A DNA stretch of 44,369 nt from an uncultured Candidatus Saccharibacteria bacterium (lineage in GTDB: Bacteria > Patescibacteriota > Minisyncoccia > UBA6257 > HR35). Position 1 is the stretch's first letter, and every line of letters starts with the position of its first letter. The position numbers and the translations under genes are program-made. Of the stretch, positions 3,601 through 44,369 are shown piece after piece. The stretch is from assembly GCA_964655375.1 (NCBI GenBank), contig CAZZNB010000023.1:1-44369 (forward strand), written 5' to 3'. The notes beneath the pieces were generated by a model, which was given only the letters and a program-made list of their open reading frames with translations, was not told the DNA's origin and ran no database searches.

Positions 3601-5467
3601 TGAATCTTTTTCTTGGTTCTACTTCTGTACCCATTAAAATTGTAAATAATTGATCTGCTTTTTCTGCATCTTTAATTGTCACTTTTTTAAGTACTCTTTT
3701 TTCAATGTTCATTGTAGTTTCCCATAATTCTTCTGGATTCATTTCTCCTAACCCTTTATATCTTTGAACATCTATATTTTTCTTTTTTTCTTTCTCTAAC
3801 TTTTTTATAATTTCATCTTTCTCTTCGTCTGAATATGCATAATAAATTTCTTTCCCTGCTTGTATTTTATATAGAGGTGGTTGAGCAATATAAACATATC
3901 CTTTTTCAATTAATGGTCTAAAGAATCTATAAAATAAAGTTAAAAGTAATGTTCTAATATGAGAACCATCTGTATCTGCATCAGTAGCAATAATTATTTT
4001 TGAGTATCTTAAGTTATCCAAGTTAAAATCTTTACCAATACCAGTGCCTAGAGCAACAACAAGATCTCTAATTTCTTTAGATTTTAAAATTTTAGACAAA
4101 TTAGCTTTTTCAACATTTAAAATTTTACCTCTCAAAGGCAAAACAGCTTGGTAAACTCTATCTCTGCCCTGCTTAGCACTACCCCCAGCACTATCTCCTT
4201 CTACAATAAAAAGTTCTCTTTTAGAAAAATCTTTGCTTGAGCAATCTGCTAATTTACCGGATAAAGCCAAAGAGACAGATAATCTTTTTTTAAATATATT
4301 CTCTCTCGCTGTTTTTTCTGCCTCTCTAGCTTCTAAATTAACTACTAATCTTTGTAAAATATTTTTTGCTTCATCTGGATTCTTGCCAAAATATTCTTTC
4401 AAAAAATTAAAAGTTTTACTTTCAACAAAGCTTCTTGCTTCAGGATTACCTAATTTTGATTTTGTTTGACCTTCAAACTGTGGTTCTGGGATTTTTAAAG
4501 AGATAATAGCATACAATCCGCCTCTTATATCCTCTGTTATTAAATTTTTGTTGTTTTTTAAAATATTAAATTCTTTACTCAAATCATTAAATATTCTAAC
4601 CAGTCCGTTTCTGAAACCTACAAGATGAGTACCGCCTTCAGGATTTAAAATGTTATTAGTAAAAGCTAATTCTTTAGTTTCTTCATTTTCGACATAATTA
4701 AAAACAAACTCATATTCTTTATCATCTTCTGAGATTTTTCCATAAATATGATAAGGATTTACAAGTTTTTTATTTTTTATAAGATGGCCTAAAAAACTAA
4801 TTAATCCTCCTTCAAAACAAAAACCATAAGCGAAAATCTCTTCTTCTCTCTCATCATAAAAACTTATCTTAAGACCTGGTGTTAAATATGCTTGATGCCT
4901 TAAATATTCTAAAATAAGATCACGGTCAAATTCTATCTCTGCAAAAATTTTAGGATCTGGCTCAAATATAATAGTTGTTCCTGTTTTTTTAGAAGGCCTA
5001 ACTTTTTTTAAGGGAGTTTTCGGTATCCCCCTTTCATATTCTTGTGACCATTCAAAACCATCTCTGTGAACAATAGCTTTTAAATATTTAGACAGAGCAT
5101 TAACAACAGAAAGCCCCACTCCATGTAGTCCTCCAGAAACTTTATATACTTTTTGACTAAATTTCCCTCCAGCATGAAGATAAGTAAGAACAGTTTCTAA
5201 GGCAGATTTTTTTGTTTTAGGATGAATATCAATAGGAATACCACGCCCATCATCTGAAATGGCCACTTTATTATTTTTAAGTAATCTTACTTCTATGTTT
5301 TTTGCATACCCAGCTAAAGCTTCATCTACTGCATTATTAATTATTTCCCATATTAAATGGTGTATACCTTCTTTTCCGGTTCCACCAATATACATTCCAG
5401 GTCTTTTTCTTACAGCTTCTATACCTTCTAAGACTTGAATATGTTCTGCCTTATATTCTGTACTCAT
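3560..5467 (-). CDS. gyrB: DNA gyrase subunit B
   Basis: EAVRKRPGMYIG, NAVDE, GGLHGVG, TOPRIM VEGDSAGG, DADTDG, QRYKGLGEMNPEELWETTM. Confidence 0.98.
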   Translation of the reverse strand: MSTEYKAEHIQVLEGIEAVRKRPGMYIGGTGKEGIHHLIWEIINNAVDEALAGYAKNIEVRLLKNNKVAISDDGRGIPIDIHPKTKKSALETVLTYLHAGGKFSQKVYKVSGGLHGVGLSVVNALSKYLKAIVHRDGFEWSQEYERGIPKTPLKKVRPSKKTGTTIIFEPDPKIFAEIEFDRDLILEYLRHQAYLTPGLKISFYDEREEEIFAYGFCFEGGLISFLGHLIKNKKLVNPYHIYGKISEDDKEYEFVFNYVENEETKELAFTNNILNPEGGTHLVGFRNGLVRIFNDLSKEFNILKNNKNLITEDIRGGLYAIISLKIPEPQFEGQTKSKLGNPEARSFVESKTFNFLKEYFGKNPDEAKNILQRLVVNLEAREAEKTARENIFKKRLSVSLALSGKLADCSSKDFSKRELFIVEGDSAGGSAKQGRDRVYQAVLPLRGKILNVEKANLSKILKSKEIRDLVVALGTGIGKDFNLDNLRYSKIIIATDADTDGSHIRTLLLTLFYRFFRPLIEKGYVYIAQPPLYKIQAGKEIYYAYSDEEKDEIIKKLEKEKKKNIDVQRYKGLGEMNPEELWETTMNIEKRVLKKVTIKDAEKADQLFTILMGTEVEPRKRFIEAYAREVKNLDI

Positions 5468-5470
5468 TTT

Positions 5471-5809
5471 TTAATTTGTTAATCTAATATCTAAAATTTT
5501 ATCCAAACTCCAGCCTGGCCCTGAAGAAATTAATATTATAAAATAAGCTATTAAAGGTAATTTTTCTAATTGAACTTGTTTTTTAACTATACTTCTAGTA
5601 AAATTTGCCATTTCAAAAAACAATAAAATTATAGCTGAAATAGAAGTAAAAAGCCCTAGAGCTAAAGAAGTTGCTAATATAAAAATGAGAGCACTTTTTA
5701 TTTTGTCTAAAGGATAAATTTTATAAGAAAGGTTAAAATAAATAAATGAAATTATTAAACGAGAAAAGAATATTAAATAATCTCCTAAAATCCAAATAAG
5801 CTGTATCAT
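5471..5809 (-). CDS. DoxX-family membrane protein
   Basis: Hydrophobic helices with an early Arg and the C-terminal GPGxxSLD signature (SGPGWSLD). Confidence 0.8.
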   Translation of the reverse strand: MIQLIWILGDYLIFFSRLIISFIYFNLSYKIYPLDKIKSALIFILATSLALGLFTSISAIILLFFEMANFTRSIVKKQVQLEKLPLIAYFIILISSGPGWSLDKILDIRLTN

Positions 5810-6833
5810 GAAAGAAAAAATATATTTTAATGCAATAAATATACTTTATAAACCTTATCAGCTTTCTATATTTAAATTATATCAAAAATTAGGTAGTTTT
5901 GAAAGTGTATTTAACGAATTAAAAATTAAAAATAAATTAGATATTGAAAAAGAATACAAAAAAGTTGAGGATTTAAATATTAAAATAATTACCTATAATG
6001 AGAAAGAGTATCCTATAAAACTAAAAAATATTGATGAGCCACCTTTAGGATTTTATATTTTAGGAAATAAAGATTTATTAAATAATGATAATTTATTCAT
6101 AGCTATTGTAGGAACAAGAAAAGCAACAAATTATGGTTTGAATATATCACAAAAATTTTCAAAAGAATTGGCTAGTTTGGGAATAATTATAGTAAGTGGA
6201 TTAGCTTTTGGCATAGATGAATATGCCCATAAAGGAGCGGTTGAGATTAATGGTAAAACTATTGGAGTTGTAGGAGAAGGTATCGACATAGTATTAAGGT
6301 CTACTAAAAGAAAATTAGTAGAAAAAATATTAGAAAATGGAGGAGCGATTATTTCTGAATATTCTTTATCAACTCCAGCAATGCCTTATCATTTTCCATT
6401 AAGAAACAGAATAATTGCTGGCTTAAGCGATGGTATTACAGTTATAGAAGCTCCGATAGATTCAGGTGCGTTAATCACAGCTAATTATGGATTAAAATAC
6501 GGCAAAGAAATATTTGTTGTTCCAGGAGAAATAACAAATAAAAATTACCAAGGTAGTCATAATTTAATTAAACAAGGAGCAAAACTTATAACAGAAATAG
6601 AAGATATTTTAGTAGAATTTAACTTTGATGTTGATTTAAGAAATAAAATAAAAAAACTAAAACTTTCCCCTAAAGAGGAAATTATTTTTGAAATTTTAGA
6701 AAAAGGTGAAAAAACTATTGAAGAATTAAAAGCAGAAACAAATATACCTATTCAAGAGCTTTTAGTTGTTTTAACAAATATGGAAGTAAAAGGATTAATT
6801 AAAAATAAAGGAGGGAAATTTTTTCTAGCTTAG
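5808..6833 (+). CDS. dprA: DNA-processing protein DprA
   Basis: AIVGTR, VSGLAFGID, FPLRNRIIAGLS, SGALITA, GSHNLIKQGA and a C-terminal winged helix. Confidence 0.97.
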   Translation: MKEKIYFNAINILYKPYQLSIFKLYQKLGSFESVFNELKIKNKLDIEKEYKKVEDLNIKIITYNEKEYPIKLKNIDEPPLGFYILGNKDLLNNDNLFIAIVGTRKATNYGLNISQKFSKELASLGIIIVSGLAFGIDEYAHKGAVEINGKTIGVVGEGIDIVLRSTKRKLVEKILENGGAIISEYSLSTPAMPYHFPLRNRIIAGLSDGITVIEAPIDSGALITANYGLKYGKEIFVVPGEITNKNYQGSHNLIKQGAKLITEIEDILVEFNFDVDLRNKIKKLKLSPKEEIIFEILEKGEKTIEELKAETNIPIQELLVVLTNMEVKGLIKNKGGKFFLA

Positions 6834-41191: not shown

Positions 41192-41264
41192 ATATTAATT
41201 TTAATTCAAAATTTACTAAAAATTTAATCTCGGACTGAGAGATAGTTTATGTTAAAATTTAATC

Positions 41265-41485
41265 ATGAAAAATTTAAAAGTTTGGGATTATAAATTACCA
41301 AGAAATTGGAGACTGAAAAATGATTTTGAATGGCAGTGGTATTTAGTTAGAAAAATAAATTATGGTGATTTTAAGGGTTTAAAAATCGAATTGATTAAAA
41401 AATATTGGAGGAAAATTAAAAAAATTTAACACCAGGAAAAAGACTTTTGTTTGAAAACTTTTTCAAATATGAAAATCCTAAATAA
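41265..41485 (+). pseudogene. Small antitoxin-like partner gene, frameshifted in an A7 run
   Basis: MKNLKVWDY...WYLVRKINYG...KKYW stops at 41427-41429. One extra A in the run at 41418-41424 restores ...KKNLTPGKRLLFENFFKYENPK*, overlapping the next ATG. Confidence 0.6.
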
Positions 41486-41603
41486 AACTCAAAAATTGTT
41501 TTAGATGTTTTTTTCAAAATCAGATTTAGTTAAAAATTTTTATTGGGCAGGGGAATTCTTTGAAAAAGAATCCTTGCGGTATTTAAAAAAATTTCTAAAA
41601 TGA
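41469..41603 (+). pseudogene. Remnant of an AbiEii-like nucleotidyltransferase toxin (internal deletion plus stop)
   Basis: MKILNKTQKLF*..FSKSDLVKNFYWAG resembles the AbiEii N-terminus leading into the GG(T) motif, then jumps to a C-terminal-like EFFEKESLRYLKKFLK* whose TGA overlaps the epimerase ATG. Confidence 0.6.
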
Positions 41604-42499
41604 AAATTTTAGTTACAGGTGGGGCAGGATTTATTGGTAGTAATTTGGTTGATAGATTAATTGATGAAGGTTACAAAGTTTTTGTTATCGATAATCTTTC
41701 TTCTGGAAAAAAAGAAAATTTAAATAAAAAAGCAATTTTCTATAAGGCTGATATTTGCAATTTGAATAAAATTTTTCCTTTATTTAAAGGAATTGATTAC
41801 GTTTTTCATTTAGCAGCTAATCCTAGAGTTTTATTTTCTGTAGAAAATCCAATTGAAAGTCATAAAGTTAATGTTGATGGTACTTTAAATGTTTTATATG
41901 CTAGTTATAAAAATAAAGTCAAAAGATTAATTTTTGCTTCAAGTTCTGCTGTTTATGGAAATATAAAAAAATTGCCATTAAGAGAAGATATGAAACCTAA
42001 TCCAATTTCTCCTTATGGACTACATAAATTAATTGGTGAATATTATTGTAAGTTATTTTCCGATCTTTATAATTTAGAAACAGTTTGTTTAAGATATTTT
42101 AATGTTTATGGGCCAAAAATGGATCCTGAAGGACCTTATGCTTTAGTTATTGGAAAATTTTTAAAACTTAAAAAAGAAAATAAACCACTTACAATTTATG
42201 GTAATGGGAAACAAACAAGAGATTTTGTTTATGTTGATGATGTAGTAGGAGCAAATATTTTAGCAATGAAAAGCAAAAAAGTTGGTAAAGGAGAGGTTAT
42301 TAATATATGTTCGGGCAAAAATTATTCAATTAATTATATTGCTAAACTAATTGGAGGAAAGAAAATTTATTTACCAGCAAGAAAAGGAGAAATGAAACAT
42401 ACTTTGGGAGACAATTCTTTAGCTAAAAAACTTTTAGGCTGGAAACCAAAAGTTAATTTAGAAGAAGGAATAAATTATCTACTTAACAACTACTTTTAA
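41600..42499 (+). CDS. NAD-dependent nucleotide-sugar epimerase/dehydratase (extended SDR)
   Basis: TGGAGFIGS, FHLAA, FASSSAVYG, YGLHK (YxxxK), LRYFNVYGP, RDFVYV.D. Confidence 0.95.
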   Translation: MKILVTGGAGFIGSNLVDRLIDEGYKVFVIDNLSSGKKENLNKKAIFYKADICNLNKIFPLFKGIDYVFHLAANPRVLFSVENPIESHKVNVDGTLNVLYASYKNKVKRLIFASSSAVYGNIKKLPLREDMKPNPISPYGLHKLIGEYYCKLFSDLYNLETVCLRYFNVYGPKMDPEGPYALVIGKFLKLKKENKPLTIYGNGKQTRDFVYVDDVVGANILAMKSKKVGKGEVINICSGKNYSINYIAKLIGGKKIYLPARKGEMKHTLGDNSLAKKLLGWKPKVNLEEGINYLLNNYF

Positions 42500-42620
42500 T
42501 TCTACTTTCTTAACATTGCTCACTGGCCAATAGGATTCAACAACAAAGTCTTTATCAGAAATGAATTCTGCTTTAGCAACTTTTCTATGTTTTACTGGCT
42601 ATATTTCAAATTTTTCACTT
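42479..42620 (-). repeat. Direct-repeat copy 1: displaced, degenerate duplicate of the 3' end of the gene at 43905-44369
   Basis: Aligns without gaps at offset 1426 to 43905-44046. Core 42513-42582 versus 43939-44008 matches 69/70. Translates SEKFEI*PVKHRKVAKAEFISDKDFVVESYWPVSNVKKVELKVVVK*. Confidence 0.92.
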
Positions 42621-42669
42621 ATCTCTTAAATTTTTACTTAGCTAAAAAATTTGTTTTTAGTTAACCATT

Positions 42670-42687
42670 CTTATATTATAATATAAG
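42670..42687. promoter_or_regulatory. Perfect 18-bp palindrome CTTATATTATAATATAAG containing the -10 hexamer of the TA operon
   Basis: Self-complementary; TATAAT at 42677-42682 is 6 nt upstream of ATG 42689. Confidence 0.65.
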
Positions 42688-42688
42688 T

Positions 42689-43339
42689 ATGGTTGATTTA
42701 CCAATTTTTAAAAAATTAAAAAAGAAAATACATCAAGAAATTGCCCTTGTGCAAGATCTTTTAGTCCAAGAGGTTTTTAATGTTTTTAAAACTGCTACTT
42801 TGCATGGTGGGACAGCTATTTGGAGATGCTACCAGGGAAATAGATTTTCTGAAGATGTAGATTTTTATATCTCAAAAAAAGAAAAAAACAAAATTAATAT
42901 TTTTTTAAAAAAATTAGAAAGTGCGGATTTTAAAATTTTGAAAAAGAAATTTACCCCAAATGCTTTTTACTCTAAATTAAGAAAAAACGGTATCGAAATT
43001 AGGCTTGAAATTTTATTCAAAGAAGTCAAAAATTACATTACCAAAGAATATGAAACAGTAGAGGGATTAAAATTCACAGTGAATACTTTAAGCGCTGATG
43101 ATTTAATTCAAGAAAAAGTTTTTGCTTATCTCAAACGAAGATTAATTAGAGATATTTATGATATTTATTTTCTTTTAAATTATGCTACAAAAGATAAAGT
43201 TAAAAATATTCTTTCAAAATTATTAAAAAATTTTAAAGAGCCCATTGATGAAAATAGTCTAAAATTTTTAATTATTACTGGAGTAGCGCCGAAATTAGAA
43301 GACATTTTAAATAAAATTAAAAAATATGCACGAGAATAA
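42689..43339 (+). CDS. AbiEii-family nucleotidyltransferase (type IV TA toxin-like)
   Basis: HGGTAIWRCY.GNRFSEDVDF (GGT plus SxDxD), EKVFAY..RR..RDIYDIYFL. Confidence 0.88.
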   Translation: MVDLPIFKKLKKKIHQEIALVQDLLVQEVFNVFKTATLHGGTAIWRCYQGNRFSEDVDFYISKKEKNKINIFLKKLESADFKILKKKFTPNAFYSKLRKNGIEIRLEILFKEVKNYITKEYETVEGLKFTVNTLSADDLIQEKVFAYLKRRLIRDIYDIYFLLNYATKDKVKNILSKLLKNFKEPIDENSLKFLIITGVAPKLEDILNKIKKYARE

Positions 43340-43904
43340 ACACATAAATAAAATAAAAAATTTCATTAAAAAAACACCTGTTTTTTCTTCTAAAGATATA
43401 GAAAGAATTATTAGGAATAAAAGTTATACCCATTTAATTTTAAGTAAGCTTGCAAAAAGAGGTGAAATTTTCAGATTAACAAAAGGATTTTATAGTTCTT
43501 ATGATGATCCTACTTTTTTTGTATTTTATTTTAAACCTGCCTATATTGGACTTTATGATGCTTTAAGTTTAAATAATTTTTGGGAACAAGAAACAAATAC
43601 AACTATCATTACTACCAGAAAAGTTAGAACTGGGATAAGAAAAGTCTTTAATTCTAACGTTATTGTCAAAAGAATTAAACCAAAATACTTTTTTGGTTTT
43701 GATTATTTAAAATATGAGAACTTCTATATTCCTGTTTCTGACCTAGAAAAGACTTTAATTGATATACTATACTTCAAAGAACCATTAACTAAACAAATTT
43801 TGAAAGATGCAGCGAAAAAAATAGAAAAAAGGAAAATTGTAAAGTACTTGAGGTTTTACCCTAAAAATTTTCAGAAATTAGTTTTACATAAGATCAAAAT
43901 TTAA
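43326..43904 (+). CDS. AbiEi-like antitoxin (N-terminal winged helix, C-terminal SDLEKTLID)
   Basis: L..LAKRGEIFRLTKGFY, PAYIG...AL, PVSDLEKTLID.LY; overlaps the toxin stop by 14 nt. Confidence 0.8.
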   Translation: MHENKHINKIKNFIKKTPVFSSKDIERIIRNKSYTHLILSKLAKRGEIFRLTKGFYSSYDDPTFFVFYFKPAYIGLYDALSLNNFWEQETNTTIITTRKVRTGIRKVFNSNVIVKRIKPKYFFGFDYLKYENFYIPVSDLEKTLIDILYFKEPLTKQILKDAAKKIEKRKIVKYLRFYPKNFQKLVLHKIKI

Positions 43905-44046
43905 TTATTTCACTACTATTTTTAATTCTGCTTTTTTGACATTGCTCACTGGCCAATAGGATTCAACAACAAAGTCTTTATCAGCAATGAATTCTGCTTT
44001 AGCAACTTCTCCTGGTTTTATTGGTTCTGTTTTAAATTTTTCACTT
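43905..44046 (-). repeat. Direct-repeat copy 2 (intact 3' end of the cupredoxin-like gene)
   Basis: Partner of 42479-42620; see alignment there. Confidence 0.92.
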
Positions 44047-44369
44047 CTAAACTCTAAACCACCATAATAAACTTTATCTGATCTTACATAAAGATGAAGG
44101 TTAACCCACTCTCCTTTTCTAAATTCCAAACTTGATGGGTAAAAACCATAATCATCTGCTTCAACTTTTGCTTCTACCCGTGTTTGTGTTTGTGTTGTTG
44201 GAGTTTGAAGTATTGGAGTTTTAACAGGACATCTGTCTGTTTTTAACCATCCTGGAGGAATATCACAGGGCGTTGGAAATTCTTTGCATTCTGATGGATT
44301 TTGAGGATTGTAGGCTGGAGTAATTACTTGAATACAGACTCTTGGAGTTGAAGTAACTGGTAACTTTAG
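43905..44369 (-). CDS. Exported-type protein, 3' part: four-Cys mini-domain, Thr-rich linker and cupredoxin-like C-terminal domain (5' end outside window)
   Basis: Frame is open from the window end: ...CIQVITPAYNPQNPSECKEFPTPCDIPPGWLKTDRC...EADDYGFYPSSLEFRKGEWVNL...IKPGEV. The ORF-track start at 44129 is an internal TTG. Confidence 0.75.
   Translation of the reverse strand, partial: LKLPVTSTPRVCIQVITPAYNPQNPSECKEFPTPCDIPPGWLKTDRCPVKTPILQTPTTQTQTRVEAKVEADDYGFYPSSLEFRKGEWVNLHLYVRSDKVYYGGLEFRSEKFKTEPIKPGEVAKAEFIADKDFVVESYWPVSNVKKAELKIVVK

Follow-up and report, generated by a model that had tools for sequence, protein, structure and literature searches.

Organization of the epimerase–AbiE–X locus

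A 44,369-nt stretch of DNA from an uncultured Candidatus Saccharibacteria bacterium (contig CAZZNB010000023.1 of GenBank assembly GCA_964655375.1), referred to here as the window, carries near its 3′ end a pair of direct repeats that flank a toxin–antitoxin (TA) gene pair of the AbiE family. An NAD-dependent epimerase/dehydratase gene (41600–42499, + strand; Pfam PF01370, 1.1e-65) lies to the left of an AbiEii-family nucleotidyltransferase gene encoding the toxin (42689–43339, + strand; 216 aa), which is followed by an AbiEi-family antitoxin/regulator gene (43326–43904, + strand; 192 aa). A gene for a putative secreted protein, which we call X, is transcribed towards the pair from the opposite strand and runs off the window (43905–44369, − strand). 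Contigs used for comparison are identified by L numbers.

The repeats are gap-free and lie at 42479–42620 and 43905–44046. Pairwise comparison gave 124 of 142 identical positions, 18 differences and an offset of 1426, as in the preliminary description of this DNA; a repeat search of the window returned slightly wider intervals (42472–42620 and 43898–44046, 87% identity, spacing 1426). The right copy (− strand) is the functional 3′ end of X, and its first 79 nt (43905–43983) are 100% identical to L033. That it completes an intact gene, as had been proposed, was confirmed by L001 and L003, where X is intact and 410 aa long. The left copy (− strand) is a pseudogenised 3′ fragment, X′, whose translation reads SEKFEI*PVKHRKVAKAEFISDKDFVVESYWPVSNVKKVELKVVVK*, with the in-frame TAG at 42599–42601. 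Its last 21 nt overlap the 3′ end of the epimerase gene (stop codon 42497–42499), such that the last seven epimerase codons (LLNNYF*) are antisense to the X′ tail and are still supplied by the fragment. The stop codon and the overlap had both been described previously, and the translation and the 21-nt overlap agree with that account.

The differences between the copies are unevenly distributed. In a core at 42513–42582 of the left copy, compared with 43939–44008 of the right copy, 69 of 70 positions are identical and the sole mismatch is at 42559. A 70-nt interval containing no more than one of the 18 differences gave P = 4e-4 by permutation, and a comparison of core and flanks by Fisher's test gave p = 6e-4. 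Therefore, the clustering of identity is unlikely to have arisen by chance.

Between the left copy and the TA pair there is a remnant of a third gene. Positions 42617–42664 (+ strand) encode 15 codons (TYLLNFYLAKKFVFS) and a TAA stop from the 3′ end of a GtrA-like gene, and are 100% identical to L033, where GtrA is intact. The assignment was made through the full-length homologue in L008, a membrane protein matched by Pfam PF04138. The identity to L033 covers all 68 nt of 42621–42688, a segment that in L033 comprises the end of the intact GtrA gene and the region upstream of AbiEii. The repeats had been said to bracket only a promoter and the TA pair; this does not hold, given the GtrA remnant and a scan against the promoter consensus that found no + strand site upstream of AbiEii and a number of matches equal to the shuffled expectation.

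The junction between the two gene fragments can be placed precisely. The sequence is homologous to the right copy up to 42620 and to L033 from 42617 onwards; therefore, X′ and the GtrA remnant are fused via ACTT, a 4-nt microhomology (42617–42620). The joint connects X at 142 nt from its stop codon to GtrA at 48 nt from its stop codon. The fusion is an illegitimate joint and not an attachment (att) site.

Because repeats of this kind could be created during assembly, we considered whether strain variants had been collapsed or chimerised into a repeat. Several strain variants are indeed present in the same samples, and Logan contigs (k = 31) break exactly at the repeat. In those contigs, the left-specific and right-specific flanks are nevertheless each linked (L004, L006 and L007). 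The order epimerase–X′–AbiEii–AbiEi–X is the same in four independent assemblies, namely the window and L001, L002 and L003, the latter being two JGI assemblies and one MEGAHIT assembly from other samples. The MEGAHIT assembly used k = 141, which exceeds any identical stretch of the repeat. The junction between the X stop codon and the end of AbiEi was also found in two further strains (L067 and L068). Because the same order recurs in independent assemblies, the structure is real, and an artefact, which the preliminary description had named as a finding that would refute it, can for practical purposes be discounted.

Repeat alleles and arrangements in relatives

We noted that the left copy shares with L021 and most orthologues states that are absent from the right copy, for example GTA for the V in KVVVK, and the V in PVK. 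The presence of these orthologue-like states indicates that the left copy is a separate allele rather than a fresh copy of the right one, as had been suggested from the two tails. Both copies read VVESYWPV where almost all orthologues read IIESYWPL. Selection on the protein was thus ruled out as the cause of the core identity, since orthologues differ from both copies at several core positions.

The repeat is polymorphic among strains. In one allele (allele B; L001, L002, L006 and L007), the left copy has the right-copy state at 42493, 42504, 42509, 42512 and 42559, with no change in the right copy. The longest stretch without a mismatch measures 94 nt in allele B, compared with 46 nt in allele A (the window and L003). 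Since the left copy alone changes, the polymorphism is non-reciprocal and points to gene conversion from the functional right copy rather than repeated site-specific or reciprocal crossover; the near-identical core of the left copy is read as the conversion tract. The differing lengths of the identical run, together with this non-reciprocity, show that the core is not a fixed att site.

To place the locus in context, species-representative genomes and JGI/ENA metagenome contigs were scanned with X as the query, and neighbouring genes were mapped by tblastn. The locus lies between HIT/MurD genes and genes for an ArsR-type helix-turn-helix (HTH) protein and a family 4 glycosyltransferase (GT4), and is highly variable. 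In arrangement I, X converges on GtrA, a family 2 glycosyltransferase (GT2)/PMT-like gene and the epimerase, with no cassette (L008, L021, L023, L024, L027, L029, L031, L032 and L047). Arrangement II has this order too, except that AbiEii–AbiEi lies between GtrA and the X stop codon (L009, L030, L033, L042, L043 and L060). No second copy of the X tail was found in arrangement II, either by a repeat scan of L009 or by blastn with the 142-nt repeat against L009, L030, L033, L042 and L043. In arrangement III, the epimerase is followed directly by AbiE (L041, L061 and L062). In arrangement IV, the X tail overlaps or abuts the end of the epimerase (L034, L025 and L035). The L034 epimerase ends in LLYYYF*, and this end lies antisense to the X tail with the codon register that LLNNYF* has in the window. 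In L025, an intact long X abuts the remnant of an internally deleted epimerase, and in L035 the epimerase is almost entirely lost.

Because the overlap in L034 has an identical register, the view that the left copy is an old convergent gene end, part of an inherited arrangement, is supported; L025, where intact X abuts the epimerase remnant, fits the same earlier proposal. On gene order, the window combines the left side of arrangement IV with the right side of arrangement II.

The AbiE block itself is close to that of L033. Over the 1367 nt of 42617–43983, identity to L033 is 97.5%, compared with 93.1% for MurD–HIT and 77–90% for the body of X. The similarities of AbiE and X are incongruent: L033 has 97% identity for AbiEii and 80% for X, whereas L021 has 88% for X and only 60% for an AbiEii that lies at a different site. 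Because the block exceeds the 93% background and these similarities disagree, exchange of the AbiE block and X tail between lineages appears to postdate the divergence of the surrounding genome.

Gene X is also a mosaic when compared with L021, with 98–100% identity from 44022 to ∼44700, ∼91% at 43905–44021 and 69–84% in the 5′ half. The boundary at 44021/44022 was considered as a crossover within the repeat and set aside, since the L021-like block is younger than the AbiE block (98–100% versus 97.5%).

The repeats do not bound the unit whose presence varies among relatives. In L032, the cassette-less allele reads GtrA stop–TTTT–X stop, and a contig in run X7 has the corresponding joint, 42664/TTTT/43905. 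The presence/absence unit is therefore the 1240 bp of 42665–43904 (+ strand), which is replaced by TTTT in cassette-less alleles. The joint in run X7 was the one clean joint in four runs and was examined as a possible deletion joint of the window's own arrangement; it turned out to be the GtrA–X arrangement of a cassette-less relative.

Neither an empty site nor a deletion allele was found in six near-identical strains, and none of the six cluster members has an X protein with the left-type tail (KKVELKVVVK), which would be the signature of an empty site. The runs available are k = 31 contigs, which are unable to phase an identical stretch of 46–94 nt and hence cannot reveal circle or deletion joints. 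The depths of Logan contigs in runs X1 and X2 do not balance for cassette-less chromosomes; short and long forms of X, and other lineages, share k-mers.

Some integrative elements, and integrase-less cis-mobilizable elements (CIMEs), lie between direct repeats and bring with them a replacement 3′ end that keeps their target gene intact. The window resembles them in having a repeat-flanked insert and an X gene kept intact by a carried 3′ end, and differs from them in that no integrase was found, there is no fixed att core, the insert contains a broken neighbouring gene and relatives have the cassette without the repeats.

These comparisons bear on the possibility of a dedicated minimal mobile TA cassette, with the 142-bp repeats as its ends, a 70-bp att core, an integrase acting in trans, a carried tail that restores the target and a 1426-bp circle. 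Direct repeats with a near-identical core do flank the TA pair, the carried tail does restore an intact X, and PMC3985639 and PMC11062541 describe AbiE modules that stabilise plasmids and integrative and conjugative elements (ICEs). However, the interval holds a truncated GtrA end joined by a 4-nt microhomology, relatives have the cassette at the same place without repeats, and the unit whose presence varies measures 1240 bp and has other ends. Strains also differ non-reciprocally in how far the identical tract extends, and an empty site was not seen in near-identical strains. A recombinase was not found nearby or as a domain in any of the 10 integrase-sized open reading frames (ORFs) of the window; the ORFs of the repeat interval are AbiEii and AbiEi alone. 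We therefore consider such a cassette highly improbable.

The minimal repeat-bounded cassette of the preliminary description is thus not upheld, given the GtrA end in the interval, the relatives that lack the repeat and the 1240-bp unit. Its observation that no integrase lies adjacent was borne out. The search it proposed for empty sites gave none among near-identical strains, and the empty allele of relatives fits 42665–43904 rather than the repeat-bounded unit. As for its proposal to look for the cassette at other loci, the AbiE pair was also found behind the epimerase (L041, L061 and L062), behind unrelated genes (L063) and, as a divergent pair, between GT4 and HTH genes (L021). Of its suggestion that integration was either homology-driven or trans-acting, the arrival from another lineage with the help of homology is favoured by the 97.5% identity against a background of 93%; the integrase in trans with an att core is disfavoured by the variable tract.

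Proposed origin of the two X tails

Taken together, the repeat pair is probably a recombination scar in a hypervariable cell-surface/glycosylation locus of a hot-spring population of Patescibacteria (candidate phyla radiation, CPR), and the locus a mosaic of the type produced by homology-facilitated illegitimate recombination (HFIR). In this proposal, two pre-existing arrangements were fused. One, A, would have had the epimerase and X converging with overlapping ends; the other, B, would have had GT2–GtrA–AbiEii–AbiEi converging on X. The left joint would have been illegitimate, with X at 142 nt before its stop joined through the 4-nt microhomology to the last 48 nt of GtrA, and the right side would have been resolved by homologous recombination within or beyond X. 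The old X tail would thereby have been stranded beside the epimerase as a decaying pseudogene fragment, with the AbiE pair and a different allele of the X tail placed before it. The most likely route would be uptake of DNA from a co-occurring lineage followed by HFIR. Later, non-reciprocal gene conversion from the right copy would have homogenised the middle of the left copy, producing the 69/70 core. The direction and route of transfer, and the order of these events, are what we infer from the present-day haplotypes.

A microhomology joint with a one-sided homologous anchor is the outcome of HFIR described in PMC3240628. Among naturally transformable bacteria, the process is associated with Acinetobacter, Streptococcus pneumoniae and Pseudomonas stutzeri (de Vries & Wackernagel 2002; Prudhomme et al. 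2002; Meier & Wackernagel 2003, as cited in PMC5361080). The window shares with HFIR a single 4-nt microhomology joint, homology on the other side and putatively foreign DNA beside a homologous anchor. It also carries DprA (5808–6833; PF02481, DNA_processg_A, E = 1.5e-75), whose presence would be consistent with transformation. Two differences should be noted. Here, the process is deduced from natural haplotypes of an uncultivated CPR bacterium, and the joint lies inside the homologous region itself, giving a 142-bp duplication rather than the usual small deletion.

The HFIR model has also been applied to displaced 3′ ends in type VI secretion system (T6SS)/Rhs arrays (PMC5361080). The orphan 3′ ends of Rhs, contact-dependent inhibition (CDI) and T6SS effector–immunity arrays (PMC5361080) offer a second parallel: the new 3′ end of an incoming module displaces the resident one, and the old end stays downstream as a fragment that shares a conserved stretch with the new. 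The locus departs from those arrays in that its passenger, transcribed in the direction of X, is an AbiE pair and no immunity gene, X does not belong to the known polymorphic toxins, and there is one displaced end and no array.

Several points weigh against an HFIR-type scar. DprA is the sole pointer to natural competence of the organism. The X gene of present-day L033 is short and retains no more than 79 nt of the tail, so that L033 is not the literal donor. The expected recipient haplotype, in which the epimerase converges on an intact X with no cassette, was not recovered, and the closest relatives with the overlapping arrangement are 68–84% identical. The X block from 44022, at 98–100% identity to L021, blurs the original right-hand crossover. 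Finally, a Campbell-type insertion of a 1426-bp circle, or a tandem duplication with a deletion, would give an identical structure.

As to the mode of entry, it would be equally possible that the joint was already present on a fragment, which then entered by single-crossover or ‘ends-in’ insertion. In its specific form, a 1426-bp fragment with the X(142)::GtrA joint, arising as a type-B deletion circle or a tandem-duplication junction, would have been integrated by RecA into the X tail of a type-A chromosome, and could loop out again. A duplicated homologous segment is the inherent signature of a single crossover, and the L033-like block (42617–43983, at most to ∼44021) nearly coincides with the repeat-bounded unit, the right copy being L033-like to at least 43983 and L021-like from 44022. 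However, that last boundary belongs to the younger L021-like block and may have no connection with the original event, DNA taken up in transformation normally arrives as linear single strands, and no circle or deletion allele was observed in the near-identical strains or the k = 31 contigs. The non-reciprocal polymorphism between strains also points to conversion rather than repeated crossover. We regard this Campbell-type origin as unlikely, though a credible alternative.

A purely intragenomic origin would require no horizontal input. An ancestor of type B would have gained a copy of the X tail next to GtrA, through template switching or a tandem duplication mediated by microhomology, and would then have lost GT2–GtrA by deletion. 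The microhomology joint is in keeping with such a history, as are the many independent deletions at this locus in relatives, where the epimerase has been gutted in L025, L035 and L022. Against it, the left copy has orthologue-like states missing from the right copy, and so is not its copy; the overlap of the epimerase and X′ in the register of L034 implies an inherited arrangement; and the AbiE block is closer to L033 than the genomic background is. We judge it improbable. A templated insertion from elsewhere in the organism's own genome is similarly disfavoured by the orthologue-like states in the left copy.

Whichever way the repeats arose, recombination between them could delete 1426 bp and regenerate an intact X overlapping the epimerase. 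A penalty imposed by the toxin on such loss is plausible, because AbiE systems stabilise plasmids and ICEs (PMC3985639 and PMC11062541). A further step would be to regard the 1426-bp unit as a reversible module, in which RecA-mediated loop-out would restore an intact X overlapping the end of the epimerase. The DNA set free, circular or linear, would be taken up by neighbouring cells and re-insert by homology into any X tail, while the toxin would penalise loss. We are doubtful of this. If it were true, the X tail would be a shared landing pad that shuttles the AbiE pair among co-occurring Patescibacteria lineages with no need of a recombinase.

If the HFIR-type scar is the correct interpretation, the locus would provide a natural example of gene-content change in ultra-small, uncultivated CPR bacteria, in which homologous and illegitimate recombination together carried a TA/defence pair, along with part of an adjoining gene, from one co-occurring lineage to another, with no enzyme of a mobile element taking part. 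The event would have left a datable scar and an ongoing gene-conversion tract. None of the underlying phenomena is new (HFIR-type scars, displaced 3′ ends, gene conversion, and TA modules in variable regions), and the locus adds a further example of them that is moderately interesting for CPR population genomics. It also gives a warning that direct repeats flanking a TA pair are insufficient evidence for an integrative element.

The AbiE module and gene X

The toxin gene matches Pfam PF08843 (1.8e-19, 71 bits against a cut-off of 22.5) and 23 PADLOC AbiEii models. Motifs I–II of the nucleotidyltransferase, given as hG[G/S]x15DhD by Dy et al. (2014, PMC3985639), were read from the translation as LHGG-TAIWRCYQGNRFSE-DVD, with a spacing of 14 (LHGG-x14-DVD). 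The antitoxin gene lies downstream of the toxin gene with a 14-nt overlap and matches PADLOC AbiEi (7.8e-20); the Pfam AbiEi_4 score of 24.2 bits is marginally below the 25-bit cut-off. In the canonical AbiE system the regulator precedes the nucleotidyltransferase (PMC3985639), whereas the toxin came first in every homologous locus that showed both genes (including L009, L021, L030, L033, L041–L043 and L060–L066). The pair thus resembles the type IV AbiE system of Dy et al. (2014, PMC3985639) in its DUF1814 nucleotidyltransferase with hGG...DhD, its winged-helix AbiEi, its overlapping bicistronic genes and an inverted repeat in the putative promoter region, and differs in the reversed gene order and in the short proteins (216 and 192 aa).

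A search for AbiE homologues returned 692, of which the best 120 were listed. Among these 120, the named homologues at 72–76% identity are Patescibacteria, and those at ∼50–56% are mostly DPANN archaea; one archaeal context includes L15e and TFIIE genes. The pair would accordingly seem to be an ordinary TA/abortive-infection module belonging to a short, toxin-first subfamily that is common in CPR bacteria and DPANN archaea, and this subfamily may merit functional study.

A near-perfect palindrome of 32 nt (42663–42694; 15 of 16 pairs, found as a self reverse-complement match) contains TATAAT and overlaps the AbiEii ATG. It is a candidate both for the AbiEi operator and for the left end of the cassette. 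The palindrome is kept at the start of the cassette in four different upstream contexts, including that of L021, and the 1240-bp unit always starts with TAACC and the palindrome, whether it lies behind GtrA, the epimerase or unrelated genes (L063). The two-gene module is also present in an archaeal genome (L065), where the stretch inspected upstream showed no similar palindrome. Both ends of the unit abut TTAA, which was considered as a target-site duplication and rejected as an A/T-rich coincidence: the empty allele has an extra TTTT, and the right-hand TTAA is the AbiEi stop. A terminator scan found none, with counts equal to those in shuffled sequences, and an Rfam scan of 41200–44369 found no RNA family.

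Other AbiE arrangements were seen in the comparison set. In L021, the relative whose X is the most similar (88%), a divergent AbiE pair (4201–5371; 60–67% aa identity) lies across X, with the GT4 and HTH genes as its neighbours, and has the palindrome at its start. In L060, the interval 899–1766, within a few kb of the main AbiE pair, holds a second AbiEii-like gene (219 aa) behind a 74-aa ORF. One contig of run X7 has a backward joint, 43360 to 42705, with seven extra letters and a depth of ∼10; the joint falls within the AbiE genes, does not match the repeat and may represent another AbiE arrangement or a chance A/T-rich match.

The epimerase has been gutted independently in L025 (1495–1640), L035 (9123–9200) and L022 (9188–9240), by internal deletion or with only the first codons left. 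L033 has no epimerase at all, and the locus shows repeated gene loss. The gap between the HIT and epimerase genes in the window contains a 54-aa ORF (41265–41429; WDYKLPRNW...WQWYL) that has no Pfam match and is also found in relatives (59% identity in L008; 78 aa in L035).

The X protein begins with a hydrophobic segment that, judged by eye, is a candidate signal peptide. A proline-rich linker and a conserved middle domain follow, and the last ∼100 aa bear a weak resemblance to cupredoxins. Homologues of this C-terminal domain (residues ∼305–410), with 38–54% identity, were found in Saccharibacteria and on Aenigmarchaeota, Woesearchaeota and Micrarchaeota contigs (L013–L019), which suggests a promiscuous secreted domain spread across ultra-small bacteria and archaea.

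The long form of X (410 aa) occurs in the same hot-spring samples as a short form of 312 aa ending in ...TTTPSGY*; the loci compared were window 43987–44225, L002 6767–6895, L032, L033 and L034. The short form has lost the greater part of the C-terminal domain but keeps an in-frame, orphaned tail remnant of 79–123 nt. The breakpoints vary by lineage, with L002/L032, L033 and L034 differing from one another. For the two forms, contig depths were 11 versus 50 in run X1 and 40 versus 79 in run X2.

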